DNA from: a virus
DNA length: 64,000 nt
Direction: 5' to 3' (one strand)
IMG/VR virus record: IMGVR_UViG_3300044800_000286
Below are positions 1,278 through 64,000 of this stretch, in pieces; positions within the stretch are counted from its first letter, which is position 1; each line of letters begins with the position of its first letter. The notes below the pieces were generated by a model that saw only the letters and a list, made by a program, of their open reading frames with translations, had not been told where the DNA came from and did no database searches. The translations under genes and the position numbers were made by a program.

Positions 1278-3859
1278 ATACCTTCACCAGTGCCCTCCGG
1301 ACCTTTGTCAGCCTCTACGCTTTGATCGATTTTCTCAAGTTGCAACCCTTCGGTGAGCTTATCGCCAAGATTGGTGTTAGCCATGAGCCACTCGCCGACG
1401 CTGTTGTATATGTTGCCCAAAACCTCATTAAATTTACTATCATTTACAGTAAACATATCGTCCTCAAGCTTGCGCTTGGCATCTTCGGGATCAATGCTAA
1501 GAAGCTCATACAAAATACTGATGGGCAAGCTTCCTTTACTGTATAGGTTGAACAAAACGTCATATAGGTCGCCGCTGTCACGAAGTGCCATCCTTGAGAA
1601 CGTGATCTTTGGATAAATCCAGCGCGGGCGGCCGTAGTTGTCCATCTCGTAAAAACCACGCTCCATTGCAATCGGGCGAAATATTTGGTCTTCAACGATG
1701 GTTGTTATCAAGTCTCTAAATTGCACGTATGATACTTCCATTATTTGGAGTTGAATTCTGTTACCGCTATATAAACCTTCGCCGATCAGGATTTCCGGGG
1801 AGAGCCCCAAGCCTATCGCCAAGTCGGAGTTGGTATGCTGCCATTCGCCGTCGAGCGAGAGCAGGCGGCCTTCGCTGCCGATCTCCTCCCAACGGGCGTC
1901 ATAATTGAGCACGACGCTGTAATCGGGGTCCGCCTTCGCCTCGTCCACGTGGGCACGCAATGCCATGACCTCGTTCGCCGGGATGCCCGGTGCGATGACC
2001 ATGGTCTTCGGCGTCATGTTGCGGGACGCCAACGTACTTTGTACTTGACGGAGCTTCTCCCTGTAGATGACCGTGCGGATGCAGCGCTGGAGGATCGAAC
2101 GTCCGTGAAGCTCGTACCCGCTCTTCTTGCGGGCGAAGTGGATCACGTAGCTGCCCTTCATCGGGTCTTGGTTCAGGGGAATCTTGCCCTCAAGCTGTAT
2201 CTTTTCCTTGACCTCGGACGGCACGTCCGGGTCTTCAAGGTACGCCTGCTTCTGCTGCTCGGGCGGCTTGTAATAGATCGTCGGCCCGGCTTCCATCGTA
2301 CCCTCGTTGGTGATCTCGATCTGCTCCGGCGGGAGAATCTGGAGGCGGGTCGGGCCATCATATTCGCGGTTGATCACATGCTGGAATAACTCCATATCTT
2401 CTTGTCTCTTCTCGCGGGTTTCCTTGAGTTCCTCCAGCAATTCCTTCTTACGTTCGAGCAAACGGAGGTAGTGCTTCAGTTCCATCAACTCGCGCTGCGA
2501 GGTTACGCTCATGCCCATGCCAATCGCCGACTGCGCGTCTCCCGCCATATCGGGGGAAACCGACATACCTCCTCCACCGCCACCGCCCATCGGGGGAGCG
2601 CCAGCGCCAGCCATGCCGGGGTCGCCGCCCATAGGATCAGCACCAGCGACATCACCGAGCCCTGCGTCCCCGAGGGGAGCGCCCGGATCGACGCCAGCCG
2701 CAGCCGGATCACCAGCCAGAGGAGCGCCCGCACCTGCATCGCCCGCGGGGGGAGCCACAGGAGGAGCCGCGGGCGGCTGCGCCACCTTCTCGAATTCCGC
2801 CGTGACTTGGATCGGGTACTCGTCCTCGCCGTTTGTGCGGCTGAGGAGCTTGCCGAGTTTTACGAAAGATGCCTTATCGGTCTCCGAAGCGATGATGAGC
2901 TTCGCGAGCGACTTCGCGGATACGCCGATATTCTTGGCGACCTCGCGTGTCTTCTTGTTAAGGGTTGCACGTTTGGTTTTAATCTCGGAAAGAGTCCTGC
3001 CCACGTCCTCCCAGACATCAAAGGCGATGCCATCCTTCGTCAGTTCGTCAATTGCCGAAGCGTGTTTCTTTAGCCATGAGGCGCGGTGGGTCGGCTCCAG
3101 ATAATCGAGAATCCGGGCAGAAGTGCCACCGAGGGGGGAGTGGAACTCCGACTCCTTACCGGGCTCCGTGCTGTCCCCGCCTGCACCGCCGTTTTCCTTG
3201 TCGATGATCTTTTGGGCTTCTTTGCAAGGCTCGACCTTAGTCGGCTTCTCGACCCAGATGAAGGCTTCGCCGATGGTCCAGTATTCGCGGCAGGCGTCGA
3301 TGAGCGTCTGGAAGAGCTTGGTGTGCTGCTGGAACCGCTGGTACTCGTCGAATACGTAGTCGGAGAACTCCTCCGAGGAGCACTTGGGCTTGGCAGACTC
3401 CATCTTGGAGAGCGGAAGCTCGGTGTGCATGTCGATGGCGCGGCCGACGATGGGGTCGCGGTCATAGGCGAGGCGGTAGAAACGAAGCTCTTCGGCGCGG
3501 GACGCTGGAAGCTCCAGCGCATCGACCGGGAACTCGTACGAGTAGTAGCCGATGTTGTTCGAGTCGGCGATGTCGGCATACCCGATTCCGCCGTCATTGA
3601 ACAAGCCTGCGGTCTTCACGCTGGGGTCGTCGCCAAGCAGCACGTCCGCCATGCCCCGGAGGGAACGGAGCTTGTTGCGATAGGCGGCGTCGTCATGGAT
3701 TTCGCCGTTTTGGATCGTGGTATATCTTCCGGCAGAGGCAAACTCCTGCACTCGCCCCTGCGCATTCAACGCCTTGGCTACCTTGCGAATGTCAGTAGTC
3801 TTGTTGGTCCCAACGCTTCCGTTTCGTACCCTGCTTTTCGGTTCTTTGTTCTCGGCCAT
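1274..3859 (-). CDS. Phage portal protein with a large internal low-complexity insertion
   Basis: FYRLAYDRDPIVGRAIDMHTELP, REYWTIGE and HFARKKSGYELHGRSILQRC segments typical of large-phage portals; 861 aa. Confidence 0.7.
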   Translation of the reverse strand: MAENKEPKSRVRNGSVGTNKTTDIRKVAKALNAQGRVQEFASAGRYTTIQNGEIHDDAAYRNKLRSLRGMADVLLGDDPSVKTAGLFNDGGIGYADIADSNNIGYYSYEFPVDALELPASRAEELRFYRLAYDRDPIVGRAIDMHTELPLSKMESAKPKCSSEEFSDYVFDEYQRFQQHTKLFQTLIDACREYWTIGEAFIWVEKPTKVEPCKEAQKIIDKENGGAGGDSTEPGKESEFHSPLGGTSARILDYLEPTHRASWLKKHASAIDELTKDGIAFDVWEDVGRTLSEIKTKRATLNKKTREVAKNIGVSAKSLAKLIIASETDKASFVKLGKLLSRTNGEDEYPIQVTAEFEKVAQPPAAPPVAPPAGDAGAGAPLAGDPAAAGVDPGAPLGDAGLGDVAGADPMGGDPGMAGAGAPPMGGGGGGGMSVSPDMAGDAQSAIGMGMSVTSQRELMELKHYLRLLERKKELLEELKETREKRQEDMELFQHVINREYDGPTRLQILPPEQIEITNEGTMEAGPTIYYKPPEQQKQAYLEDPDVPSEVKEKIQLEGKIPLNQDPMKGSYVIHFARKKSGYELHGRSILQRCIRTVIYREKLRQVQSTLASRNMTPKTMVIAPGIPANEVMALRAHVDEAKADPDYSVVLNYDARWEEIGSEGRLLSLDGEWQHTNSDLAIGLGLSPEILIGEGLYSGNRIQLQIMEVSYVQFRDLITTIVEDQIFRPIAMERGFYEMDNYGRPRWIYPKITFSRMALRDSGDLYDVLFNLYSKGSLPISILYELLSIDPEDAKRKLEDDMFTVNDSKFNEVLGNIYNSVGEWLMANTNLGDKLTEGLQLEKIDQSVEADKGPEGTGEGM

Positions 3860-14921: not shown

Positions 14922-14950
14922 ATAATACTCGAAAGTCCGGTTTCTGTCAA
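14922..14950 (-). promoter_or_regulatory. Sigma70-type promoter of the ncRNA/tRNA-Pro array
   Basis: TTGACA-17 bp-TATTAT. Confidence 0.8.
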
Positions 14951-14961
14951 CAGCTATCTTC

Positions 14962-14985
14962 GGGAATTATGCGCCTAACTTCCCC
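14962..14985. mobile_element. Orphan IS1595-type terminal repeat
   Basis: GGGAATTATGCGCCTAAC preceded by TSD-like CTATCTTC, 11 bp from the -35 box. Confidence 0.5.
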
Positions 14986-15168
14986 GCATCGTACGCGACC
15001 CAAAATTCCGACGGCGTTTTGGCGGGGTATACGCGCCCGAACTTGCCCGCCGCAAAACCTTCGAAACGTCGCCCGCAAACGCACATCAATTCGGCACGAT
15101 GCACATTGCCCAGAAAACCTTGCGAGTAATCCGGGGGCTGTGCATGCCGATAAAGCACAGTATTTTTC

Positions 15169-20772: not shown

Positions 20773-20792
20773 TGGTGCCGGGAGGGGGAGTT
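20773..20792 (-). pseudogene. 3' remnant of a tRNA (T-loop to CCA, Leu-like)
   Basis: AACTCCCCCTCCCGGCACCA directly after the HNH stop. Confidence 0.55.
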
Positions 20793-21295
20793 CAGCCTAT
20801 GGCGGCTGCCAAAGTTTCAGTACGGACGCTTGGGCCTTTTCTTCCCCATGTTTCGGTTTGCGAGTGGCAATTGGGGCACAAAAATCTCAAATTGTTTTTT
20901 CGGTTGTCCCACCATTGTCCGCTTTCATGGTCTATTTCCAGAATTAGCGGTTCTCCTCGCCAAATGGGGAGACAATGGCATTTACAACATTCGTACGGAA
21001 CACCCGATTCAATCAACGCCCGACGTAAAACTGCGGCGTGTTCTTTCCGTTGTTCTGGCGAGCGAAGAACTAAAATCTCCTCCCATTGACGACGATTTTT
21101 GGGACGTACTCCCCTGTTCCTCCGTCGGCCCAAAAAGTGGGACGTGTCAAGCCCATAAATTCTTATCCATCGAGAAATGTTTCCTTGTGTCCCCCCGCTT
21201 TGCCGCAGCCCCAATTTGCGGATTATTTCCGCAAGGGTTAAACTATCTGCTACAAGCGGAGACAAAACCTCTTTTGTGTACTTTACATGTCTCAT
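20792..21295 (-). CDS. HNH endonuclease
   Basis: LEIDHESGQWWDNRKNNLRFLCPNCH. Confidence 0.88.
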   Translation of the reverse strand: MRHVKYTKEVLSPLVADSLTLAEIIRKLGLRQSGGTQGNISRWIRIYGLDTSHFLGRRRNRGVRPKNRRQWEEILVLRSPEQRKEHAAVLRRALIESGVPYECCKCHCLPIWRGEPLILEIDHESGQWWDNRKNNLRFLCPNCHSQTETWGRKGPSVRTETLAAAIG

Positions 21296-22079: not shown

Positions 22080-22109
22080 ATAATACTGCGGTAGCTGGAA
22101 AACTGTCAA
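22080..22109 (-). promoter_or_regulatory. Sigma70-type promoter of the Tyr/Leu tRNA array
   Basis: TTGACA-18 bp-TATTAT. Confidence 0.75.
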
Positions 22110-22218
22110 GAACTATTTTGGGGAACTACCCCTTTAAGTACACAAAAAATCTTGTAAATAGCTTGTTTTCAACACAATACAGCTAGCTAAAATCCCTCCT
22201 CGGCTGTATACTATGGGC

Positions 22219-22959
22219 ATGGAGAAAACGCCCATGAAGACAGCAAAAGTTCGCAACCCGTTCGCAGTTTCAGCCAAGGGGCTCGGGGAATTCAATACTC
22301 CTTGTTTCTGCGAGCGTTGTTTCATCCTCAAGAATCAGATGCGCGGCAAAGACAAGGAAGCGCCTTTCACATTTCCGCCACCGGGGATTTTGTCTCGCCT
22401 TGATTCCATGCAAAAGAAACTCATCAAGAACTCTGCGCTTCCGTCTTTCTTGAGCGCCTACGCTGGACAAGAATGTATCGAACTCCACCGCATGACTTTC
22501 ACTGACTCTGAGACTGGCATCGAATTGACTGGCGTCCCCGATTTGGCGTTCCGTGATGCGGACGGCAACATCACCATTTTGGATTTGAAGAGCAGCAAAC
22601 CTCCCGCCGAAGCGACGGAGTGGTCCGAGAGGATGCTCGCCATTTACGCCGCCCAATTGCACGCCTACAAGACGCTGCTTGAAGCCCGCGGCGAGGGGAA
22701 AGTGACCTCGCTCAGCATAGTGTATTTGTGGCCCGATACGATGATCAGCGCCGAGGGTGGCGTCAGCGTCGAGTTCAAGGCGACCGAACTCCCCGTGGCT
22801 CTCGACGGCACGCTCATCTCCCGCCTGTTTCAGAAGGCGAAGGCGTTGCTCGACTCCGAACTGCCCGCTCCGACCGCTGGTTGCGCCGACTGTGCCCGTG
22901 TGGCGAACTTTCTCGTGCTCTTGAACGCTGCGCCGAAGGCTGAGGGGGTGGGGGCATAA
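22219..22959 (+). CDS. PD-(D/E)xK nuclease, Cas4/RecB-like (leaderless start)
   Basis: CERCF...GVPD...ILDLKS...QLHAY...CADC. Confidence 0.8.
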   Translation: MEKTPMKTAKVRNPFAVSAKGLGEFNTPCFCERCFILKNQMRGKDKEAPFTFPPPGILSRLDSMQKKLIKNSALPSFLSAYAGQECIELHRMTFTDSETGIELTGVPDLAFRDADGNITILDLKSSKPPAEATEWSERMLAIYAAQLHAYKTLLEARGEGKVTSLSIVYLWPDTMISAEGGVSVEFKATELPVALDGTLISRLFQKAKALLDSELPAPTAGCADCARVANFLVLLNAAPKAEGVGA

Positions 22960-24533
22960 TGTCAGCACGACTCACAATCGAAGAAGCCGAGCGTCGTTGT
23001 CCTGATATGGTCAAAGGTCAGGCATGGAAAGGCAATCACGCCGAATATAAATTTCTTTGCGAAGTGCACGGAGAATATGAACAAGAATTTAATCGCCACG
23101 CCCGTGGCGCGGGTTGCCAGAAATGCGGACGTGAAAGTATGGCCGAGGCGCAAAGCCTCACAATTCAGGAAATGGAGCACCGCTGTTCCGACATGATTAA
23201 AGGTCAGATATGCAAAGGCACTCACGCCAAGTACTGGTTTATCTGTGGGGATCATGGGCAGTACAAGCAAGAATTTAAGTCGCATGTGGCGGGAAGGGGC
23301 TGTAGAATCTGCGGACGCGAAAAATGTATCGCAAATAGACGACTAACACTCGAAAAAAAGTGGCACAAGGACGACAGATTTAAGCCGGGAAAACGAATAC
23401 CGGGAACAGACTTGGCATACATTGGTCCGTCCAGCCGCAAGACCAGCGGCGGGAATTTCATGGCGGGGGTTCGGTGTCTGCCACATGGAAATAAGTTCGA
23501 GGTGTCTTTTTCCCTCTTGAAAACCGGAAGTCCCACTACTTGCCGAAATAATGAAGCTTGCAATCTTTATGGATTCGAGCCGGGAAAACAGATACCGGAT
23601 ACCGACTTGATATATGTTGGCCCATCCGACCGCAAAAACAGCAGTGGGAAGCGGATGATCGTGGTTCGTTGCGTCCCGCACGGGAACACATTTGAGGTTA
23701 CTTTGCGTGGTGTGAAATCTGGATATGGGACGAGTTGCAGAAGCAATCCTGCTTGCGTCCTGCATGGATTTGAGCCGGGCAAGGTCATACCGGGGACGAG
23801 CCTTACATTTATGCGGAACATGGGAATCCAAAAAAGAAATAGGCATCAGTGGGGGCAGCGCAGCATCATTGTGCGGTGCGAGCACGGAAACGAATTTGAG
23901 ATTCCGCTAGTTCAAGTAAAGAGCGGAACCACCACTAGCTGCATGAAAAATCCTGCCTGTGTCGTCCGTGGATTTGAGCTAGGTAAGTTGATTCCAGATA
24001 CAAACTTCATTTACCAAGGGTATGAGACAGGACGCGATGGAAAACCGGGGCGCGCTTTGGTTGCCTGCCTTTGTGGTAAGGAACTTCGAATCCCCCTCGG
24101 CAACCTTCGAAATGGGGGATCGACAAGCTGTGGCTGCATTAAAACTTCAAAACTGGTAAGGGCTGTCAAAGAATTTTTAACCGCATCGAACATTTCTTTT
24201 GTTTGTGAAAAAAGGTTCGATGAATGCCGCGGACAGGAAGGTCACCACGGGCGCGTTCGCTTGCCTTTCGACTTTTACCTTACCCAGCTAGAAACTTTAA
24301 TCGAATGCCAAGGCATGCAGCATTACCGTCCCATACGGTGGAGCAAAAACACGTCGATAAAGCAGGCCGAGCAAAATTTTCAGGATTTGCTTCACCGTGA
24401 CCGCATCAAGAAGGCTTGGGCGGGACGCAACGGCTACACCCTGATCGTCGTCCCCTATACGATCAAGAACATCGCATCGTTCCTCGAAGACATGCTTCCA
24501 AAGCGCCAGAAGCGTGAAAGGGCTGGGGTGTAA
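22959..24533 (+). CDS. Repeat-rich Zn-binding protein with C-terminal DUF559/Vsr-like endonuclease
   Basis: 2x ~57-aa C..HG...GC..C repeats; 4x ~65-aa F.PGK.IP.T.L...TSC repeats; LPFDFYL...IECQGMQHY...RDRIKK. Confidence 0.75.
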   Translation: MSARLTIEEAERRCPDMVKGQAWKGNHAEYKFLCEVHGEYEQEFNRHARGAGCQKCGRESMAEAQSLTIQEMEHRCSDMIKGQICKGTHAKYWFICGDHGQYKQEFKSHVAGRGCRICGREKCIANRRLTLEKKWHKDDRFKPGKRIPGTDLAYIGPSSRKTSGGNFMAGVRCLPHGNKFEVSFSLLKTGSPTTCRNNEACNLYGFEPGKQIPDTDLIYVGPSDRKNSSGKRMIVVRCVPHGNTFEVTLRGVKSGYGTSCRSNPACVLHGFEPGKVIPGTSLTFMRNMGIQKRNRHQWGQRSIIVRCEHGNEFEIPLVQVKSGTTTSCMKNPACVVRGFELGKLIPDTNFIYQGYETGRDGKPGRALVACLCGKELRIPLGNLRNGGSTSCGCIKTSKLVRAVKEFLTASNISFVCEKRFDECRGQEGHHGRVRLPFDFYLTQLETLIECQGMQHYRPIRWSKNTSIKQAEQNFQDLLHRDRIKKAWAGRNGYTLIVVPYTIKNIASFLEDMLPKRQKRERAGV

Positions 24534-25456
24534 TGAGCCGCAGCACAATAAGCACCTTCGAGCTATTCGAGCGGTTCCCCGACGAGAAGTCCGCCCGGGC
24601 CTACATTGAACGCCGCCTGTGGAAGTGTGGCATCGTCTGCCCGAAGTGCGGCACGAAGGACAGCACGCCCCGCAAGGGCAGGAGGGGGTTCCACCTCTGC
24701 AATCCCTGCCGATTGGAATTCACGGTCAGGACGGGAACCATCTTCGGTCGCTCCCACGTGCCTCTGCATAAGTGGGTCTATGCGATGTACCTGCTCGTCA
24801 CAGCCCGCGAGGGCATTTCGTCTCTGCAACTGAGCAAAGAGATCGGCGTCAAGCAGCATACGGCATGGTTCATGCTCCAGAGGCTCAGGGAAGCGTGCGG
24901 GGCTAAGGTTGAGATGCTGCACGGCACCGTGGAGGCGGATGAGACGGTCATCGGAGGCTTGGAGGATAACAAGCACATGAGCGTCAGGCTCCGCAGGGGA
25001 GTCCCGCCAAAGACGGTCGTCATCGGGATGCGGGAACGGGGCGGCAGGACGGTTGCCAAGATTCTCCAGAGTCACGGCGGGACCGCAATTCGGAACGCCG
25101 TCACAGCCAGCGTGGGGTTGGGAACCCGCCTCATGGCGGACGAAAATCCCAGCTACACGAAACTGGGCAAGCAAGGCTACGAAGTCCAAACGGTCAAACA
25201 CGTCAAGGACGAGTATGTGCGGGGCGACGTGCACACGAACGGAATTGAATCTGTATGGGCCGTGATGAAGCGAGGATTGCACGGGGTCTACCATCACGCC
25301 AGCAAGAAGCATCTACAGCGATATATGGATGAGTTTGCGTTCAGGCTCAACGAAGGAAATGTTGGCAGGCATACTTTCGAGCGGCTGGACAGCTTGGTGG
25401 ACGCCGTGGCGGGGAAGCGGATTACTTACGAGGAGTTGACGGAAAATGCGGACTAG
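24533..25456 (+). CDS. IS1595-family (ISXO2-like) DDE transposase
   Basis: Zn ribbon CPKC...CNPC, HTH GISSLQLSKEIGV, VEADET, MADE, HTNGIESVW, HLQRYMDEF. Confidence 0.95.
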   Translation: MSRSTISTFELFERFPDEKSARAYIERRLWKCGIVCPKCGTKDSTPRKGRRGFHLCNPCRLEFTVRTGTIFGRSHVPLHKWVYAMYLLVTAREGISSLQLSKEIGVKQHTAWFMLQRLREACGAKVEMLHGTVEADETVIGGLEDNKHMSVRLRRGVPPKTVVIGMRERGGRTVAKILQSHGGTAIRNAVTASVGLGTRLMADENPSYTKLGKQGYEVQTVKHVKDEYVRGDVHTNGIESVWAVMKRGLHGVYHHASKKHLQRYMDEFAFRLNEGNVGRHTFERLDSLVDAVAGKRITYEELTENAD

Positions 25457-25483
25457 CCGCCTCCTTATTTGAGGTGAGAAACT

Positions 25484-25726
25484 ATGGAAGTATATTTGAA
25501 TGTTTCAATTGGATTGCCACCCGGTTGTGAAAAGCAATTTTGTCCCACTGAGCAATGCCAACAGAACTGCATCTTATCTGAAACAGATGTTGACAAATAT
25601 TTGAAGCTTGCGCGGGTGCATTTTCCAGAATTCGTCTGGGATAAGCTGCCCGAGGCAAAAGATTCACCGTTCAAAAAGTGGGTTGTTTTCGGTCAATCTA
25701 AACTGGCTGTGGACTTAAAGGGATAA
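25484..25726 (+). CDS. Small cargo protein; stop codon inside the right TIR
   Basis: GAGG RBS; ends AVDLKG* within the TIR. Confidence 0.45.
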   Translation: MEVYLNVSIGLPPGCEKQFCPTEQCQQNCILSETDVDKYLKLARVHFPEFVWDKLPEAKDSPFKKWVVFGQSKLAVDLKG

Positions 25727-25739
25727 TTCCCCTATTTTG

Positions 25740-26260
25740 GGGGATTATATACTTGAGTCCGCAAGCCTCGCAGCGTCCTGCATCGGCTTGAAGTGCCTTA
25801 AGGGTTCCCGCACTCCCCCATTTTAGGGGAGTCGAAGAGTATCATACCGCACCTTATGCTCTTCCACAACCGGACGAACCTGAGTCTCCCGAGGGTTGGT
25901 GGAGGACTTGCCTGTCTTAATCTCCAGAAAGACAATTTCTTTAAGCTGGCCTTCGTCCAAGCCGTCAAAAACGATGTAATCTCAACAACCTTTTCAACTT
26001 CAACAATCTTAGGAACCTCAACAACCTTCTCAACTTCAATAATCTTGGGTATCTCAACCAGATGAGGAACCTCGACAACGCGGGGAGGTGCCGTTTTCAG
26101 GCTTTGGTTCTTACGCCAAAGAACAACAACGGCGACTGTCAACGCCAAAATCACAATCCACTGAAGCATTGAGCTTAATACTGTTCGGGACTGGGAAATG
26201 GCTGTTGTGTATCGGAACTAGGGGTGTTTTGATGGTTGCGTACTCAAGTGTATAATTCCC
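25740..26260. mobile_element. Non-autonomous IS1595-type element abutting the autonomous copy
   Basis: Ends GGGGATTATATACTTGAGTCCGC and (reverse complement) GGGAATTATACACTTGAGTACGC; no transposase; right TSD does not match. Confidence 0.6.
25823..26169 (-). pseudogene. Internally deleted membrane-anchored Holliday-junction-resolvase-like endonuclease (Endonuc_Holl type)
   Basis: TM + VEVPK repeats joined out of frame to DYIVFDGLDEGQLKEIVFLEIKTGKS...VRYDTLRLP (25823-25981). Confidence 0.7.
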
Positions 26261-26311
26261 TAAGTTTACGGGCAAAACACAACTACGGTCCTCCTGATTA
26301 GGGGGGCTACT

Positions 26312-26530
26312 ATGTTATTTATTGCGAAGTCCGGTGAGATCATACCCCTCACAGTGGATTGGAACGGTATTAAGGACTGCCCGACTTTTACGGTTCGAGA
26401 GGATCAGACGTTTGGTGAAGCAGCACATCTTTCAGAGTGTAATTGCGAGTTTCACCGCATGTGTCGCGGCGAAGATATATCGGGGGACCTTGATAGTTCA
26501 AAGAACTCCCTGATAACGAAAAACCTTTAA
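26312..26530 (+). CDS. Hypothetical protein
   Basis: GGGGG RBS, low GC. Confidence 0.45.
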   Translation: MLFIAKSGEIIPLTVDWNGIKDCPTFTVREDQTFGEAAHLSECNCEFHRMCRGEDISGDLDSSKNSLITKNL

Positions 26531-26715
26531 TATCGTCCAACACAACCCATGCGGGACAGGGTTTAGGTTCTCGTGTTTTGCATTTTACACGTAAGGAATA
26601 AGCCATATCTGGGAATTGTACACCCATTCAACTCTAATTCTGCTCAGCCCAAAAAGCCGGGGCGATGCCCAACTCGTGGGCGGACTGGACGAGGACGCGC
26701 AAGGGGTGCTGCATA

Positions 26716-27033
26716 ATGGAAGACCCAAAAGATCAAACCGAATTATTAAAACAAATCATCCGGCAGTTGGTCGCTCGCTGCGAGCAGCTTGACCTTGAGA
26801 ACGAGGCTTTCCACGCTTGGTTAAAGTCCGTAAAGTTTGGTTCCGTAAGCATTGGGGATAAACTTGATGAATCGTTTCGGCAATATTTTGACAGAGAAGT
26901 AAAAACCTCGGATCGTTTTCGGGTTTTAGTGCATCACAAATGGTCTGCCGTAACCGACGTTTTAGAGCACCGGTCGGATGAGACATCCTTGAAAAAGCTG
27001 CTTCAAGGGCTTCCGCCGAAAAAAGGGCAGTAG
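26716..27033 (+). CDS. Hypothetical protein
   Basis: Low-GC ORF MEDPKDQ... Confidence 0.5.
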   Translation: MEDPKDQTELLKQIIRQLVARCEQLDLENEAFHAWLKSVKFGSVSIGDKLDESFRQYFDREVKTSDRFRVLVHHKWSAVTDVLEHRSDETSLKKLLQGLPPKKGQ

Positions 27034-27328
27034 TTTTCTTATTTTTCTTATCCATCTTAATAGCCATGGGATTCCTCCGTAGTAGAAGCCTATAGTTGTA
27101 ATACTGAGAAAGGCCCACTATGACAGCTTATCCAAAACTCAGAATCGCTGTACTAGCAACCGTTCTACTTGCAGTCAGAAAATGAAATCTCAAATTACGG
27201 CAGCGACAGTTGGGGGCTTCTATGGGCACTGAAATCAAGGTCTGGGAAATCTCGGATAATCACGTAAAGGCCGTAGGAGATGCGGCTCTGGAGTCATCTG
27301 CATGACTCCCCTATTTTTTGAGGAAGTC

Positions 27329-27520
27329 CTACTGCTTGGAATGGTCGTACCCGATGTGCCGGGCTTCCGCCCCGCATTTGTGGTACCGGGTGCTGGTGTT
27401 GCCTTCGCGCGTGACAACCTTTCCGTCGCGCACCAGGTCGAAGAACTTCTCGCAGGCATCGCAGTAGAATCCCCACGTGCCGAAATCCCACGGCGTCGGG
27501 CTCGGATCGATGGGCTTCAT
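27329..27520 (-). CDS. Small Cys-containing hypothetical protein
   Basis: AGGAG RBS, coupled. Confidence 0.55.
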   Translation of the reverse strand: MKPIDPSPTPWDFGTWGFYCDACEKFFDLVRDGKVVTREGNTSTRYHKCGAEARHIGYDHSKQ

Positions 27521-27807
27521 GGCTGCTGTTCTCCTTTTTGAGGAATCTCAAACGGCTCGATCTGCTGGGTTTCAAGGTTGAAGCGGTCGAAGGAAATCCC
27601 CATGAGACGGCAGACTCCCACAAGCACCGGGCCGTCCAAGATTCCCCAATTTTCCGGGATAAAATCCGCCTCGCACTTCGGGCACCAGAGATGTTCCTTG
27701 TATTCCGACCAGTCGGGATCGGTGTGGCCGCAGCCGTGGAACGCTATCTCGTATTCTTTCGGGCGTTGGACGTATACCCAAGTGCGTTTTTCCAAAATCT
27801 CGCTCAT
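27517..27807 (-). CDS. Hypothetical Zn-finger protein
   Basis: WSEYKEHLWCPKC motif; ATGA coupling. Confidence 0.6.
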   Translation of the reverse strand: MSEILEKRTWVYVQRPKEYEIAFHGCGHTDPDWSEYKEHLWCPKCEADFIPENWGILDGPVLVGVCRLMGISFDRFNLETQQIEPFEIPQKGEQQP

Positions 27808-28505
27808 TTTTTGCAACCGTTGTTGCAGTCAAATTCCGTGCCGATATACCACTGCTTGATCCAAGACAGGGGGACGTGGCCGTCTTTGTCCATTACTTTG
27901 CGGGGAATCTCGCCCCAGAATTTCTGGAACCGATACGAAGCCGAGGCGCGCACGGCGTCGAGTTCCTTGTTCAGCTTGCATCCACCGTCGTTGCTGAAGG
28001 CATGCTTGTGGCCGGGAATTTTGGGCGCTACGAAAGGCTTCATCGCCACCCTCCAACCGGCGCTCTTGCCTGCCGTGACGGCTTCCTCCATCGGCCCCTG
28101 AGGGTGCCCCTTCGGGCACATCCAGAAAGAGCCCCGCTGGCTGTCCGTGTTGAACATCTGGAGCGCCCGCCCGCATTTCACGCATTTCGGCCAGCAAGCG
28201 GCGTTCTCCAGACCGCAGGAGCACACGAATTTGATGCAGCTATGATCATCGCTGTGGCGGTAGCTCCGCTGCGCAGCGCGGTTGGCGGCGGCTTGGAGCC
28301 GGAGGAACCTCTTCTTGACTTGTGCCTTGGTCATGCGGTCGTTCAGGTGCCAGTCGTGCCACTGCCCGTTAGGGTGGCAGAGGCCGAAGTGCGCCTCGCC
28401 TTTGAACGTCCTCACGTATTCGAGCGCGGCCTTCAGCGTGGAGAAGTCGTAACCGTCGCAGAATACAGTCGGGGTGCTCACATACAGTTGGTATTTGTTG
28501 CTCAT
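27804..28505 (-). CDS. Hypothetical protein
   Basis: AGGAAGG RBS; CSC...CVKC. Confidence 0.65.
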   Translation of the reverse strand: MSNKYQLYVSTPTVFCDGYDFSTLKAALEYVRTFKGEAHFGLCHPNGQWHDWHLNDRMTKAQVKKRFLRLQAAANRAAQRSYRHSDDHSCIKFVCSCGLENAACWPKCVKCGRALQMFNTDSQRGSFWMCPKGHPQGPMEEAVTAGKSAGWRVAMKPFVAPKIPGHKHAFSNDGGCKLNKELDAVRASASYRFQKFWGEIPRKVMDKDGHVPLSWIKQWYIGTEFDCNNGCKK

Positions 28506-28545
28506 GGTTCCTTCCTAGAAAATGCTTTGACATCCTCCCCCGCAT

Positions 28546-28695
28546 TCATGCGGGGGATTCCTCCTTGGCGGAATAGTCTTGGGCCAAAAGTTGCTCTTCT
28601 GTCACGGGCACAGGAGGTTTGGGGTTTCTACTTTTGAGCCAGAGGTAAAAGCCGCCGAACACAAGAACAGCAAGAAGGATATCTATAAGAATCAC
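28546..28695 (-). CDS. Small single-TM cargo protein
   Basis: GGAG RBS; MILIDILLAVLVFGGFYLWLKSRN... Confidence 0.45.
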   Translation of the reverse strand: MILIDILLAVLVFGGFYLWLKSRNPKPPVPVTEEQLLAQDYSAKEESPA

Positions 28696-28924
28696 GGTCT
28701 CCTCACTTTGCCTTTTTCCACAAGTAGCGGATTAAGGCTACCATCAAAACAAGCGGCAGCCCAAAAACAACGAGGTAAAACAAAATCCCCAGCCCAAGCA
28801 TTAGATAAAGCACATTCTTCTCCTCCCGCGGTTAGGACGCACTGAACTCAACCCTCCCGTGTAGTATACCACATTTGGGTAAAAGGCTACTACCCCAAGC
28901 CGTTGATTTGCTGGAGCTTCTGAC

Positions 28925-28951
28925 GCTTGTGGACTCAAGCGTATAATTCCC
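28925..28951. mobile_element. IS1595-type end followed by TSD-like CTATTTTC
   Basis: Reverse complement GGGAATTATACGCTTGAGTCCACAAGC. Confidence 0.7.
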
Positions 28952-29096
28952 CTATTTTCAAGTATTTTCAACACCCTAAAGTCGGCCTTACCCTGCCCTG
29001 AAGTGCAGGGCTTGCGGCCTCCACGGGTCAAAGCCGCAGTACGGGCAAGCCGACTCAAGGTCTTGGTCCCCCCGAGCGAGGACGAGCGGATCAGGG

Positions 29097-29705
29097 TCAG
29101 GCACGGGCTCCCTCCAATTTATTGGGGTGTTTCTTTTTCCATCGAGCCCTGGTTTGAGCAGCGTGCTGATTGAGATGCTTTTGACAGCAAGTTCTACCCC
29201 GTGTTGCTTGGGCCGGACAACGTGTGCACAAACCAACGGATATTCTTTCTTTGTAGGTTTTGGCTTTCTCTGCCTTCCTATGTTTTGTACACACTTGATT
29301 ATATCCTGTGCGTTGACTGCAGTTGCGATAGAACTTATCAACAGGGCGAAACTCATTACAATGACCGCACCAATTCATCCCAGCAGGAGCATCCTTGCGA
29401 TTAGGCCGCTTGCCGTTGGCAGCATTGCAAGAAAAATGCGAGAAAGCAATGTTGTCCAAATCCCAGTAAAGTTTTGAGTCAACATCACGCCATGCCTTTT
29501 TATGTTCAATGCTGAATTCTTTAACCTGCGTGATTTTGAAACCGCACCTAAAACAAGTATCTAAACCAAGACGCTTCGCCATACTGAACATCAGTAGCCG
29601 AGTGAGCTTATACGCCGCACGAGTAACCGGCATACCCAATTGCTGGCTGGCCTTGAGATGCTTAGAGTTCCTGCTCAAATACGGGGCTGCTTGTAGTAAA
29701 TCCAT
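29097..29705 (-). CDS. HNH endonuclease
   Basis: CFRCG...SIEHKKAW...DNIAFSHFSCN. Confidence 0.8.
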   Translation of the reverse strand: MDLLQAAPYLSRNSKHLKASQQLGMPVTRAAYKLTRLLMFSMAKRLGLDTCFRCGFKITQVKEFSIEHKKAWRDVDSKLYWDLDNIAFSHFSCNAANGKRPNRKDAPAGMNWCGHCNEFRPVDKFYRNCSQRTGYNQVCTKHRKAEKAKTYKERISVGLCTRCPAQATRGRTCCQKHLNQHAAQTRARWKKKHPNKLEGARA

Positions 29706-62549: not shown

Positions 62550-62579
62550 TCAATACCGCGAAAGCGGGAATCTTGTCAA
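62550..62579 (-). promoter_or_regulatory. Sigma70-type promoter of the third RNA array
   Basis: TTGACA-18 bp-TATTGA. Confidence 0.65.
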
Positions 62580-62920
62580 GAACTATTTTTGGGAATTATC
62601 CCTTTAACTCCACAAACTTCTAGCGTGGGATTTGGGTTACGTCGCAATTTCACTAAAGTGACGCCCTTGTCAGAACAATTTAACGTCGTGTACTTGATCC
62701 ACGAACGCAGGGACTTGTTGTGACGCAAAACTCGACGGATGCAAACGCCAAGGTAGCCTGTGTTCGTATTTATGAATCCGGGGATTATTCCTCGATTACG
62801 ACCGTGGCCGTGAATCAGCGTCAAACGGTCCTTGCCCGTCTCCCATGCCTGCTGCACAATCTTGTTGAGAATTCCATCGGTGATATCTGCCGGGAAGTAT
62901 CCGTGAAGGTCAATTTCCAC
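62576..62920 (-). CDS. Smr-domain protein (cargo; 3' end reads through the TIR)
   Basis: EIDLHG...LIHGHG...GVTLVKL. Confidence 0.8.
   Translation of the reverse strand: MEIDLHGYFPADITDGILNKIVQQAWETGKDRLTLIHGHGRNRGIIPGFINTNTGYLGVCIRRVLRHNKSLRSWIKYTTLNCSDKGVTLVKLRRNPNPTLEVCGVKGIIPKNSS
62591..62613. mobile_element. IS1595-type end
   Basis: GGGAATTATCCCTTTAACTCCAC after CTATTTTT. Confidence 0.8.
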
Positions 62921-63003
62921 TGTTTCCTCCTACTCCTAAAAAACTGCGGGGGGGACCGGAACTCAGTCCCCCGTTCGTGTTACTCGCCTACCGCAAACAG
63001 AGC

Positions 63004-63249
63004 TTAGCAGACTAGTTTTTCTATTTCCGTTTTCACGCGGTAAAATGTGGCTAGGACTTGTTTCGATGTCATTCCCATTGCGCGCAAGCGGTGAAGTTGC
63101 GCCTTGGAATCGTTGACAAATTTGTCTCCCCACTCGCGCCCAAGTGGCACACCTGACGCTAGGGCGAGTTTAACGTGCGCCACGGAATCGTCAACAAATT
63201 TGTCTCCCGCGGCGTCTAATTGTTTTGCAGCGATTTTTGATTTGTTCAT
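63004..63249 (-). CDS. Hypothetical protein
   Basis: AGGA RBS; internal repeat GDKFV(D/N)DS. Confidence 0.55.
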   Translation of the reverse strand: MNKSKIAAKQLDAAGDKFVDDSVAHVKLALASGVPLGREWGDKFVNDSKAQLHRLRAMGMTSKQVLATFYRVKTEIEKLVC

Positions 63250-63392
63250 GTTTTCCTGTTCTCCGGCGATTATCGCCTTTACCAAAACCCCAACTTTGTT
63301 GGGGCTTTTTACGATGGCGCAGAGCAGGATAAAAATTTTTGGTGATGCACCACCGACACAATAATGCTACAAACCACGAACCTCGTCAAGAA

Positions 63393-63914
63393 CTATTTTG
63401 GGGAATTACCCCTTTGACTCCGCAGCTTCTGTTGATAAATGAGGACGGCTTCAAGATTACTAGCTATCGCACGGGCAGCGCCACCCCAGATGAGTCCGAC
63501 AGTGAAATTCGATGTGGGCGCATATGCATCCTGTTTCCCGTCCGCGTTGTGCCTCACGCAGTTCTTCCCTCCCTTGCATTCGACTTCGAGACTTGCGATG
63601 CTGAGTTCTGCAAACTCGATGGACCGCGCCGTGTCGAAATCCAAATCGGCAAGATAGGCGACTGTTTCGTTGTGCACGCCGCGTTTTCCCTGCGGGGCGT
63701 CATAGGTGAGGACCAGCTTGTCACCGACCACGGCAAGCCGATTGTTAATAACTCTGTTCGGGGTGTCAATAAGGTTGGAGTTGATCCTTGCCAACTCCTC
63801 GGTTTGCATCTGGAGATCGAGAGCCGGGAAAGATTGATCGGCTTGTTTCGAGCATCCGCCGACTGCGGTCACAATCGCCGTAAAGACTAAAGCTGCGTAT
63901 AAGTTGGTCTTCAT
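63393..63914 (-). CDS. Lipoprotein (cargo; leaderless; stop codon in the TSD)
   Basis: Signal peptide ending AVGG-C; C-terminus RSQRGNSPK encoded by the TIR. Confidence 0.75.
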   Translation of the reverse strand: MKTNLYAALVFTAIVTAVGGCSKQADQSFPALDLQMQTEELARINSNLIDTPNRVINNRLAVVGDKLVLTYDAPQGKRGVHNETVAYLADLDFDTARSIEFAELSIASLEVECKGGKNCVRHNADGKQDAYAPTSNFTVGLIWGGAARAIASNLEAVLIYQQKLRSQRGNSPK

Positions 63915-64000
63915 GCCCACAGTATACAGCCGAGGAGGGATTTTAGCTAGCTGTATTGTGTTGAAAACAAGCTAGTTACAAGATACTTGTGGAGTTAAAA
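63401..64000. mobile_element. Non-autonomous IS1595-type cargo element (right TIR truncated by the window edge)
   Basis: GGGAATTACCCCTTTGACTCCGC after CTATTTTG; 63912-64000 is an inverted near-copy of 22135-22221. Confidence 0.8.

Follow-up and report, generated by a model that had tools for sequence, protein, structure and literature searches.

An IS1595-family insertion sequence with two nuclease genes, probably passengers, in a partial jumbo phage genome

The window analysed here is a 64,000-nucleotide stretch of the IMG/VR virus record IMGVR_UViG_3300044800_000286, and within it lies an IS1595-family insertion sequence (IS) that holds two nuclease genes together with its transposase gene. 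The record comprises 155 kb, is ~50% complete by estimate, and is a partial jumbo phage from peat; the phage is present in peat and bog metagenomes, in which identical proteins are found on 8–18 contigs, and the window encodes a portal protein, a large terminase, a DNA polymerase, a helicase, a UvsX-like recombinase and 26 tRNA genes. The element occupies positions 22121–25731 (3,611 bp). Its parts, and the target-site duplication around it, are as follows (aa, amino acids; GC3, G+C fraction at third codon positions).

22113–22120, no strand: left copy of the 8-bp target-site duplication CTATTTTG, directly outside the left end
22121–22144, plus strand: left terminal inverted repeat, GGGAACTACCCCTTTAAGTACACA
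22145–22212, plus strand: left-arm promoter and leader, with TTTTCA-16-TAAAAT at 22166–22193 and TGTATACT at 22205–22212
22213–22959, plus strand: gene for a Cas4/RecB-fold PD-(D/E)xK nuclease of 248 aa (PDDEXK_1 and fold), likely passenger 1
22959–24533, plus strand: gene for a phage-homing-type endonuclease of 524 aa (PHROGs and Vsr fold), likely passenger 2
24533–25456, plus strand: gene for an IS1595-family DDE transposase of 307 aa (Pfam and NCBIfam), intact
25484–25726, plus strand: orf80, 80 aa, no assigned function, with its own Shine-Dalgarno sequence GAGGTGA and a GC3 of 0.43
25708–25731, minus strand: right terminal inverted repeat, reading inward GGGAATTATCCCTTTAAGTCCACA
25732–25739, no strand: right copy of the duplication CTATTTTG, which doubles as the left flank of an abutting element

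A repeat finder places 25-nt inverted arms at 22120–22144 and 25708–25732, which are 88% complementary (22 of 25 positions paired), and perfect copies of the 8-bp direct repeat CTATTTTG adjoin both ends without a gap, as an earlier reading of the letters (the original prediction) had claimed. Past the single CTATTTTG of a would-be empty site, the right flank reads GGGGATTATATAC. The three main open reading frames (ORFs) are joined by one-base stop/start overlaps (TAATG) at both junctions, and the promoter-like site in the left arm points inward, so that the coupling and the inward promoter of that reading are both found. The stop codon of orf80 falls inside the right inverted repeat. The end type, GGGAATTAT..., also bounds related transposases at dozens of other loci, with perfect 8-bp duplications nearly throughout, and the ends of the element are therefore not chance matches. 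We take this type of end, GGGAAYTAY..., to be ISNwi1-like; the ends GGGAACTAC and GGGAATTAT presumably fit the ISNwi1 subgroup, whose name and end consensus, ggnnatTAT, reportedly go back to work by Siguier, Gagnevin and Chandler in 2009.

The transposase matches the ISXO2-like catalytic domain DDE_Tnp_IS1595 (PF12762, 1.9e-38; 132 bits, cut-off 27), Zn_ribbon_IS1595 (PF12760; 26.2 bits, cut-off 25.4) and the NCBIfam model transpos_IS1595 (NF033547, 3.8e-52; 177 bits, cut-off 75). The zinc-ribbon cysteines C36, C39, C56 and C59 and the catalytic-type residues D136, D203 and E239 show at least 97% conservation across 97 aligned full-length relatives, and every one is present here, which agrees with the intact DDE transposase that had been proposed. 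Judged by these features, the element is a genuine IS1595-family member that appears to be functional.

To place the element among its relatives, we scanned IMG/VR and the GTDB genomes with the transposase and recovered 77 viral loci (51–83% identity) and 65 loci in GTDB genomes (mostly 36–66% identity, with a few shorter partial matches), the latter mostly in metagenome-assembled genomes (MAGs) of Acidobacteriota, Alphaproteobacteria and Dormibacterota. The ends of these relatives were located by a weight matrix built from the ends in this phage, and the motif GGGAATTAT(A/C)...T..A.T.C flanks the related transposase genes on both sides. Perfect 8-bp duplications surround 29 of 34 viral and ~40 of 44 bacterial pairs of ends, and the duplicated 8-mers are A/T-rich, with the symmetric logo W-W-W-n-n-W-W-D. 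Relatives with paired ends measure 1.3–5.1 kb; a bare element would measure ~1.05 kb, so nearly all of them hold passenger DNA. In a maximum-likelihood tree, the transposase of the window is sister to that of a viral locus, L052 (support 0.999), followed by an element of a Dormibacterota MAG.

None of the cargo of the element recurs among these relatives: none of the 142 loci (77 viral, 65 bacterial) gave a tblastn match to the Cas4-like protein, to the 524-aa protein or to orf80. The sister element (83% identity, 1,765 bp), whose ends are of the same subtype, has neither nuclease gene; there the transposase gene comes first, with a promoter in the element's own end, and a 223-aa gene that weakly matches N6/N4-methylases comes next. 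A second element on the same contig has a left arm 90% identical to that of the element studied here and carries an Mrr_N-type gene. The cargo of other relatives includes C5-methylases (3), PAPS reductases (2), Vsr, Dam, ASCH and many unknowns. A 4.3-kb relative in another viral contig (L005 2727–7070, with a perfect TAAAAAAG duplication) contains a 787-aa ORF without a Pfam match that stops right at the transposase start.

Passenger-carrying transporter IS (tIS) have been described for the IS1595 and IS66 families (bioRxiv 10.1101/2021.05.26.445724). The element has the distinguishing trait of this class, genes without a transposition function within the IS ends, in the form of three ORFs found in none of the 142 related loci. 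In addition, it shares with the IS1595-family tIS, such as members of the ISNwi1+ subgroup, a single DDE transposase that has a zinc ribbon at its N terminus, ~24-bp ends that start with GGG, an 8-bp duplication, passengers within the ends and a size inside the 1.3–5.1 kb range of 78 relatives. It differs in its jumbo-phage host and in two nucleases seen in no relative, and its transposase gene stands third in an operon with a promoter of a phage class, whereas the sister element uses a promoter in its own end. By its anatomy, it is an intact and probably still mobile tIS of the IS1595 family. We consider it likely that the nucleases of this jumbo-phage element are separately acquired passengers and that the DDE transposase alone provides the mobility function; their absence from 142 related loci that hold other cargo agrees with the incidental-passenger option left open by the original prediction.

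The other option of that prediction, that the nucleases are accessory transposition proteins, fares differently. Under this option, for example, second-strand cleavage would fall to the Vsr-fold nuclease, as it does to TnsA in Tn7, or the processing of ends or targets to the Cas4-like one. In keeping with this idea, the nuclease genes and the transposase gene form one overlapping operon, and TnsA is among the weak fold matches of the C-terminal domain of the 524-aa protein (probability 0.23–0.38). However, no IS1595 transposase neighbours a Cas4-like gene among the 142 loci, all of which, including the 83% sister, lack both nucleases and hold unrelated cargo instead, the outcome that the original prediction had named in advance as refuting such a role, while almost all of the 78 loci with paired ends keep perfect 8-bp duplications. 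Cas4-like relatives also exist without transposases. Furthermore, upstream cargo abuts or overlaps the transposase start in several relatives (L005, L011, L023, L033 and L046), and this arrangement is common among them; since that cargo is unrelated, the TAATG coupling is a family habit and not evidence of a partnership. Tn7, with its restriction-fold nuclease TnsA and DDE transposase TnsB, and the TnpB-assisted homing of IS200/IS605 are likewise cases of a nuclease gene carried in a transposon next to the transposase gene; in a Tn7-like system the nuclease would be inherited together with the transposase, but here it accompanies the transposase in 0 of 142 loci. As no relative of the transposase is accompanied by these nucleases, they do not belong to the transposition chemistry; an accessory role is close to refuted, and we regard it as the least probable of the explanations considered.

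The 248-aa protein matches PDDEXK_1 (PF12705, 4.6e-9; 37 bits, cut-off 22), and its AlphaFold model (predicted local distance difference test, pLDDT, 82) retrieves 4ic1, 7lwa and 3h4r at a Foldseek probability of 1.0, in accordance with the predicted Cas4/RecB-like gene. The fold matches, all at probability 1.0, span SSO0001 Cas4, human EXO5, ACE1, RecE and lambda exonuclease. Specifically, residues C33, C36, D110, D124, K126, Q148, Y152, C224 and C227 are invariant, and the D...D-x-K and Q-x3-Y motifs are present. The protein thus shares with Cas4/RecB and lambda-exonuclease-like phage enzymes the fold, both motifs, four conserved cysteines that link the N and C termini, and distant relatives beside RecT. 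It differs from Cas4 in that it is not CRISPR-associated and in that its cysteines, a candidate metal or Fe-S site, form a 2+2 pattern, with one C-x2-C at the N terminus and one at the C terminus, whereas those of Cas4 form a 1+3 pattern. Assignment as a CRISPR Cas4 was rejected, with TIGR00372 at 20.1 bits versus a cut-off of 65 and no cas genes nearby, the neighbours being the endonuclease and the transposase.

Relatives of the Cas4-like protein fall into 5 clusters by word search and into 1,742 clusters at 50% identity by profile search. No match was obtained when the protein or its alignment was compared with viral contigs or when the protein was run by tblastn against GenBank phages, and PDB sequence searches gave no match for either this protein or the 524-aa protein. 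At the closest relative inspected (L082, 47% identity), the promoter is a normal one and IS ends are lacking. In that locus (1562–3087), the Cas4-like gene overlaps a downstream 250-aa gene with an Endonuclease VII domain (Endonuclease_7), and such a tandem of a Cas4-like gene and a second nuclease gene may recur outside transposons. More distant relatives (25–33% identity) reside in RecT, metallo-beta-lactamase, nuclease and NinB modules, with no transposase and no IS ends, at the following phage loci.

L087 4134–9127: phage module with a distant Cas4-like relative
L088 930–3545: phage module with a distant Cas4-like relative
L089 1370–3812: phage module with a distant Cas4-like relative

The order in these modules, (SbcC-like ATPase), RecT, metallo-beta-lactamase-fold protein, Cas4-like nuclease and NinB, is conserved in phages. 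Because its distant relatives lie in RecT modules, a recombination exonuclease is the best functional guess for the Cas4-like protein, which is probably a 5′–3′ exonuclease of the kind paired with phage recombinases.

The 524-aa protein matches phrog_559 ('HNH endonuclease', 4.7e-39) and phrog_9084 ('homing endonuclease', 1.7e-17), whereas Pfam gives just a weak match to a treble-clef zinc finger. Its N-terminal part consists of two treble-clef zinc modules of ~62 aa and four zinc-ribbon-like repeats of ~65 aa, which end in a ribbon of the C-x-C...S-C-G-C type, and a nuclease domain follows at the C terminus; the two types of repeat noted in the original prediction are thereby recovered as two and four copies. 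The model of the C-terminal domain (pLDDT 89) retrieves 1vsr and 1cw0 (E. coli Vsr) and 3r3p (I-Bth0305I), each at a Foldseek probability of 1.0. Across 24 relatives, the residues D, E, H, D and K hardly vary within the motifs PFDFY, IE.QG.QH and RD..K; judged by the motifs, they would be consistent with D51, H69 and D97 of Vsr (PMC3239194), and the first Glu is less than 90% conserved. Relatives also carry DUF723 and DUF4379, and the protein has matches in 684 GenBank phage records. Together with the PHROGs and fold matches, these records uphold the likeness to phage homing endonucleases that had been noted for this gene.

I-Bth0305I and the 'EDxHD' Vsr-like homing endonucleases include free-standing phage enzymes of the Hef type (PMC3239194). 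The 524-aa protein shares with them a C-terminal Vsr-fold domain, in which conserved Asp/His/Asp positions may correspond to theirs, a modular N-terminal DNA-binding region and a phage setting. It differs from I-Bth0305I in that the predicted DNA-binding part comprises six zinc-ribbon-type modules instead of NUMOD or helix-turn-helix modules and in that its gene lies inside a transposon, not in an intron or intein. The GC3 of its gene is 0.53, compared with 0.71 for the Cas4-like gene and 0.78 for the transposase gene; eight large phage genes have values of 0.59–0.86, and the HNH genes of this phage 0.44–0.46. Owing to this low value between two genes of phage-like composition, the 524-aa gene looks like a separate, selfish arrival.

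A homing-type endonuclease encoded beside a resection-type exonuclease brings up a second way in which the element could spread. In the genomes of co-infecting phages, the 524-aa endonuclease would cut either the empty site or alleles that lack the element, the Cas4-like exonuclease would resect the break, and recombination, helped by the UvsX-like recombinase of the phage, would copy the whole IS; the nucleases would then serve spread or retention, as a protein-guided counterpart of the TnpB-assisted homing in IS200/IS605. The idea of nuclease-assisted transposon homing reportedly exists in the literature. The homing-endonuclease architecture and fold of the 524-aa protein, the translational coupling of the exonuclease gene to it, the similarly overlapping Endonuclease_7 gene at L082 and the recombinase encoded by the phage all fit this scheme, which, if true, would explain the repeated occupation of the same promoter-adjacent site described below. 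On the other hand, no transposase relative carries the nuclease pair, the composition of the 524-aa gene marks a separate arrival, the protein has no known target site, and exact-pattern searches of IMG/VR revealed no presence/absence polymorphism. A homing role is a possibility, but one that we consider unlikely.

The left arm indicates how the cargo may be expressed. It contains one copy of a promoter motif of the phage, AAAATCCCC, ~7 nt, TGTATACT, 2–3 nt and GGGCATG, which usually lies just before a start codon and has 10 copies in the record versus 2.9 expected; positions outside the window are given in the window frame.

20726, 22205, 47199 and 63928: copies of the motif in the window
65224, 65304, 70200, 80951, 99601 and 136578: copies of the motif outside the window

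Since the left arm belongs to this 10-copy class, the cargo operon uses the phage's own type of promoter. The arm is 90% identical in two elements with other cargo, a 611-bp cassette of this record (at 63908–64008) and an element in phage contig L092, and it also resembles, at 72% identity, a promoter region in another part of the record that lacks an IS end. Because the ATG lies so near the −10-like box, messenger RNAs from promoters of the TGTATACT class may be leaderless. All four genes would be read from this arm, and the passengers and, via the stop/start overlap, the transposase are probably expressed within the phage programme.

The element is not the only site with IS1595-type ends. 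The record holds 13 end-like sites, compared with at most 2 in 20 shuffles, and they cluster at two places. These sites, and the promoters beside them, are listed below.

14945–14990, 22080–22144, 62552–62616 and 63385–63424: TTGACA-type promoters with their end sites
14967–14990, plus strand: solo end-like sequence, TGTCAA-CAG-CTATCTTC then GGGAATTAT..., at the tRNA-Pro/Met promoter with the same −35 offset
22080–22109, minus strand: sigma-70-type promoter of the tRNA-Tyr/Leu operon, TTGACA-18-TATTAT (11 of 12 positions), outside the element
25740–28951: abutting transposase-less element or elements of a second end subtype, with ends at 25740 (plus), 26260 (minus) and 28951 (minus)
62591–64000, continuing past the window end: second end cluster, with a solo end at 62591 (plus), a cassette and more ends at 64019, 64188 and 64780
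63401–64011 (L002 1498–2108): 611-bp transposase-less cassette, sharing its ends and its 100-nt left arm with the IS

The record is almost devoid of TTGACA-type promoters; four were found by eye or scan, all beside IS ends, with an IS1595-type end 11 nt beyond the −35 hexamer in each case, and three of the four drive tRNA operons. At the studied element, the tRNA-Tyr/Leu promoter transcribes away from the element, and the insertion 8-mer lies 3 nt from its −35 box. Between the −35 box and the end lies the transposon target, an 8-mer that is CAAAATAG-like when read on the promoter strand, and the flank (T/C)GTCAA-N3-8-mer is common to the ends at 14967, 22121, 62591 and 63401 and to the left end of L052. 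TGTCAA at −11 was considered as a family-wide target feature and rejected, as it was found only in this phage and L052. Our reading is that the 8-mer beside the −35 box is a preferred target, at which elements stack because each insertion regenerates the target on the promoter side.

Consistent with stacking, an end of the second subtype begins at 25740, right after the duplication, with either 26260 or 28951 as its partner, and CTATTTTC at 28952–28959 matches the duplication at 7 of 8 positions. The same end-to-end abutment (end, 7–8 nt, end) occurs at 64011/64019, in L052 (8 nt) and in L043 (9 nt). The perfect duplication around the autonomous IS implies at least one true insertion there, beside a pre-existing end. 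Within 25740–28951, there is a 123-aa membrane protein with VEVPK-type repeats, as well as several ORFs without a family match. The 611-bp cassette contains one 175-aa ORF with a signal- or lipoprotein-like N terminus and no Pfam match. A 114-aa Smr-domain gene (62576–62920, minus strand; PF01713, 1.5e-7) has a frame that crosses the solo IS end at 62591–62614.

This pattern also raises the question of whether the element is one mobile unit at all, since the ends could be remnants of separate insertions, or else repeats associated with promoters, with resident phage genes between them. End-like sequences stand at an identical −35 offset at four promoters, solo ends occur, the left arm is common to other cassettes, and the Cas4-like and transposase genes have a phage-like GC3. 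Against such an origin stand the perfect 8-bp direct repeat exactly at both ends, ends of the subtype of the sister element, and a size and gene order within the family range. The direct repeat and the family-wide conservation of the ends led us to reject mere promoter-associated repeats as the principal explanation, and we give the assembly of unrelated ends around phage genes as a whole very little credence.

Several observations nevertheless weigh against an intact tIS with separately acquired passengers. An exact-pattern search of IMG/VR for the empty site found none, and one for the junction between the 524-aa gene and the transposase gene gave no match, although records near the window's own were possibly not covered by either; with no empty site and no second full copy found, we infer the movement of this exact unit and do not observe it. 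Among the Cas4-like relatives that are closer than L082 (72%, 56% and 51% identity; a 325-kb contig encodes one of them), one of the two nearest might sit in a similar element. The TGTCAA-N3-8-mer flank shared by four ends could reflect a duplicated promoter-plus-solo-end unit and not repeated targeting; two sites have 65 nt in common at 82%, so that such duplication is possible for the solo ends. Co-transcription is likewise something we infer, with no convincing internal terminators (5 weak matches versus 4.6 expected).

If the tIS interpretation holds, the DDE transposase alone would move the element by binding the ~24-bp inverted ends and inserting into an A/T-rich 8-mer, which would thereby be duplicated. 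The likeliest history for the Vsr-fold multi-zinc-ribbon gene is that it entered the element at a point flanked by the exonuclease and transposase genes. Cassettes elsewhere in the phage that have matching ends but no transposase gene can probably be mobilised in trans by the same enzyme. MITEs (miniature inverted-repeat transposable elements) are known in viral genomes, including phages of Acidobacteriae (PMC11602168). Like other transposase-less IS1595 cassettes, mobile insertion cassettes and MITEs, the cassettes of this phage have the same ends and promoter-leader arm with other single genes; the studied element differs from them as the autonomous partner with several genes.

The tRNA operon and the IS cluster are bracketed by two further nuclease genes.

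20792–21295, minus strand: HNH-type endonuclease gene, on one side of the tRNA operon and IS cluster
29097–29705, minus strand: HNH-type endonuclease gene, on the other side

Selfish nuclease genes are dense in this region. No relatives were found with a flanking 342-aa phage gene as the query. At the level of the record, a direct repeat of ~330 bp is common to both ends (−18284..−17962 and 136637..136971 in the window frame; 87% identity) and is not a clean terminal repeat.

Insertion sequences are reportedly rare in phages, owing to their removal by selection (PMC11602168). Here, an intact IS and about a dozen related ends lie in half a jumbo phage genome, with cargo run from a phage-class promoter. 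The element is a clear and fairly ordinary example of the known passenger-carrying IS1595 class, in which the nucleases are likely cargo, not transposition factors, and it fits a picture in which IS1595-type elements shuttle accessory DNA-conflict genes, such as nucleases and methylases, in and between phages and soil bacteria. What may deserve attention is the repeated insertion at one 8-mer near the promoters of tRNA operons and the nesting of a homing-type endonuclease gene in a transposon.

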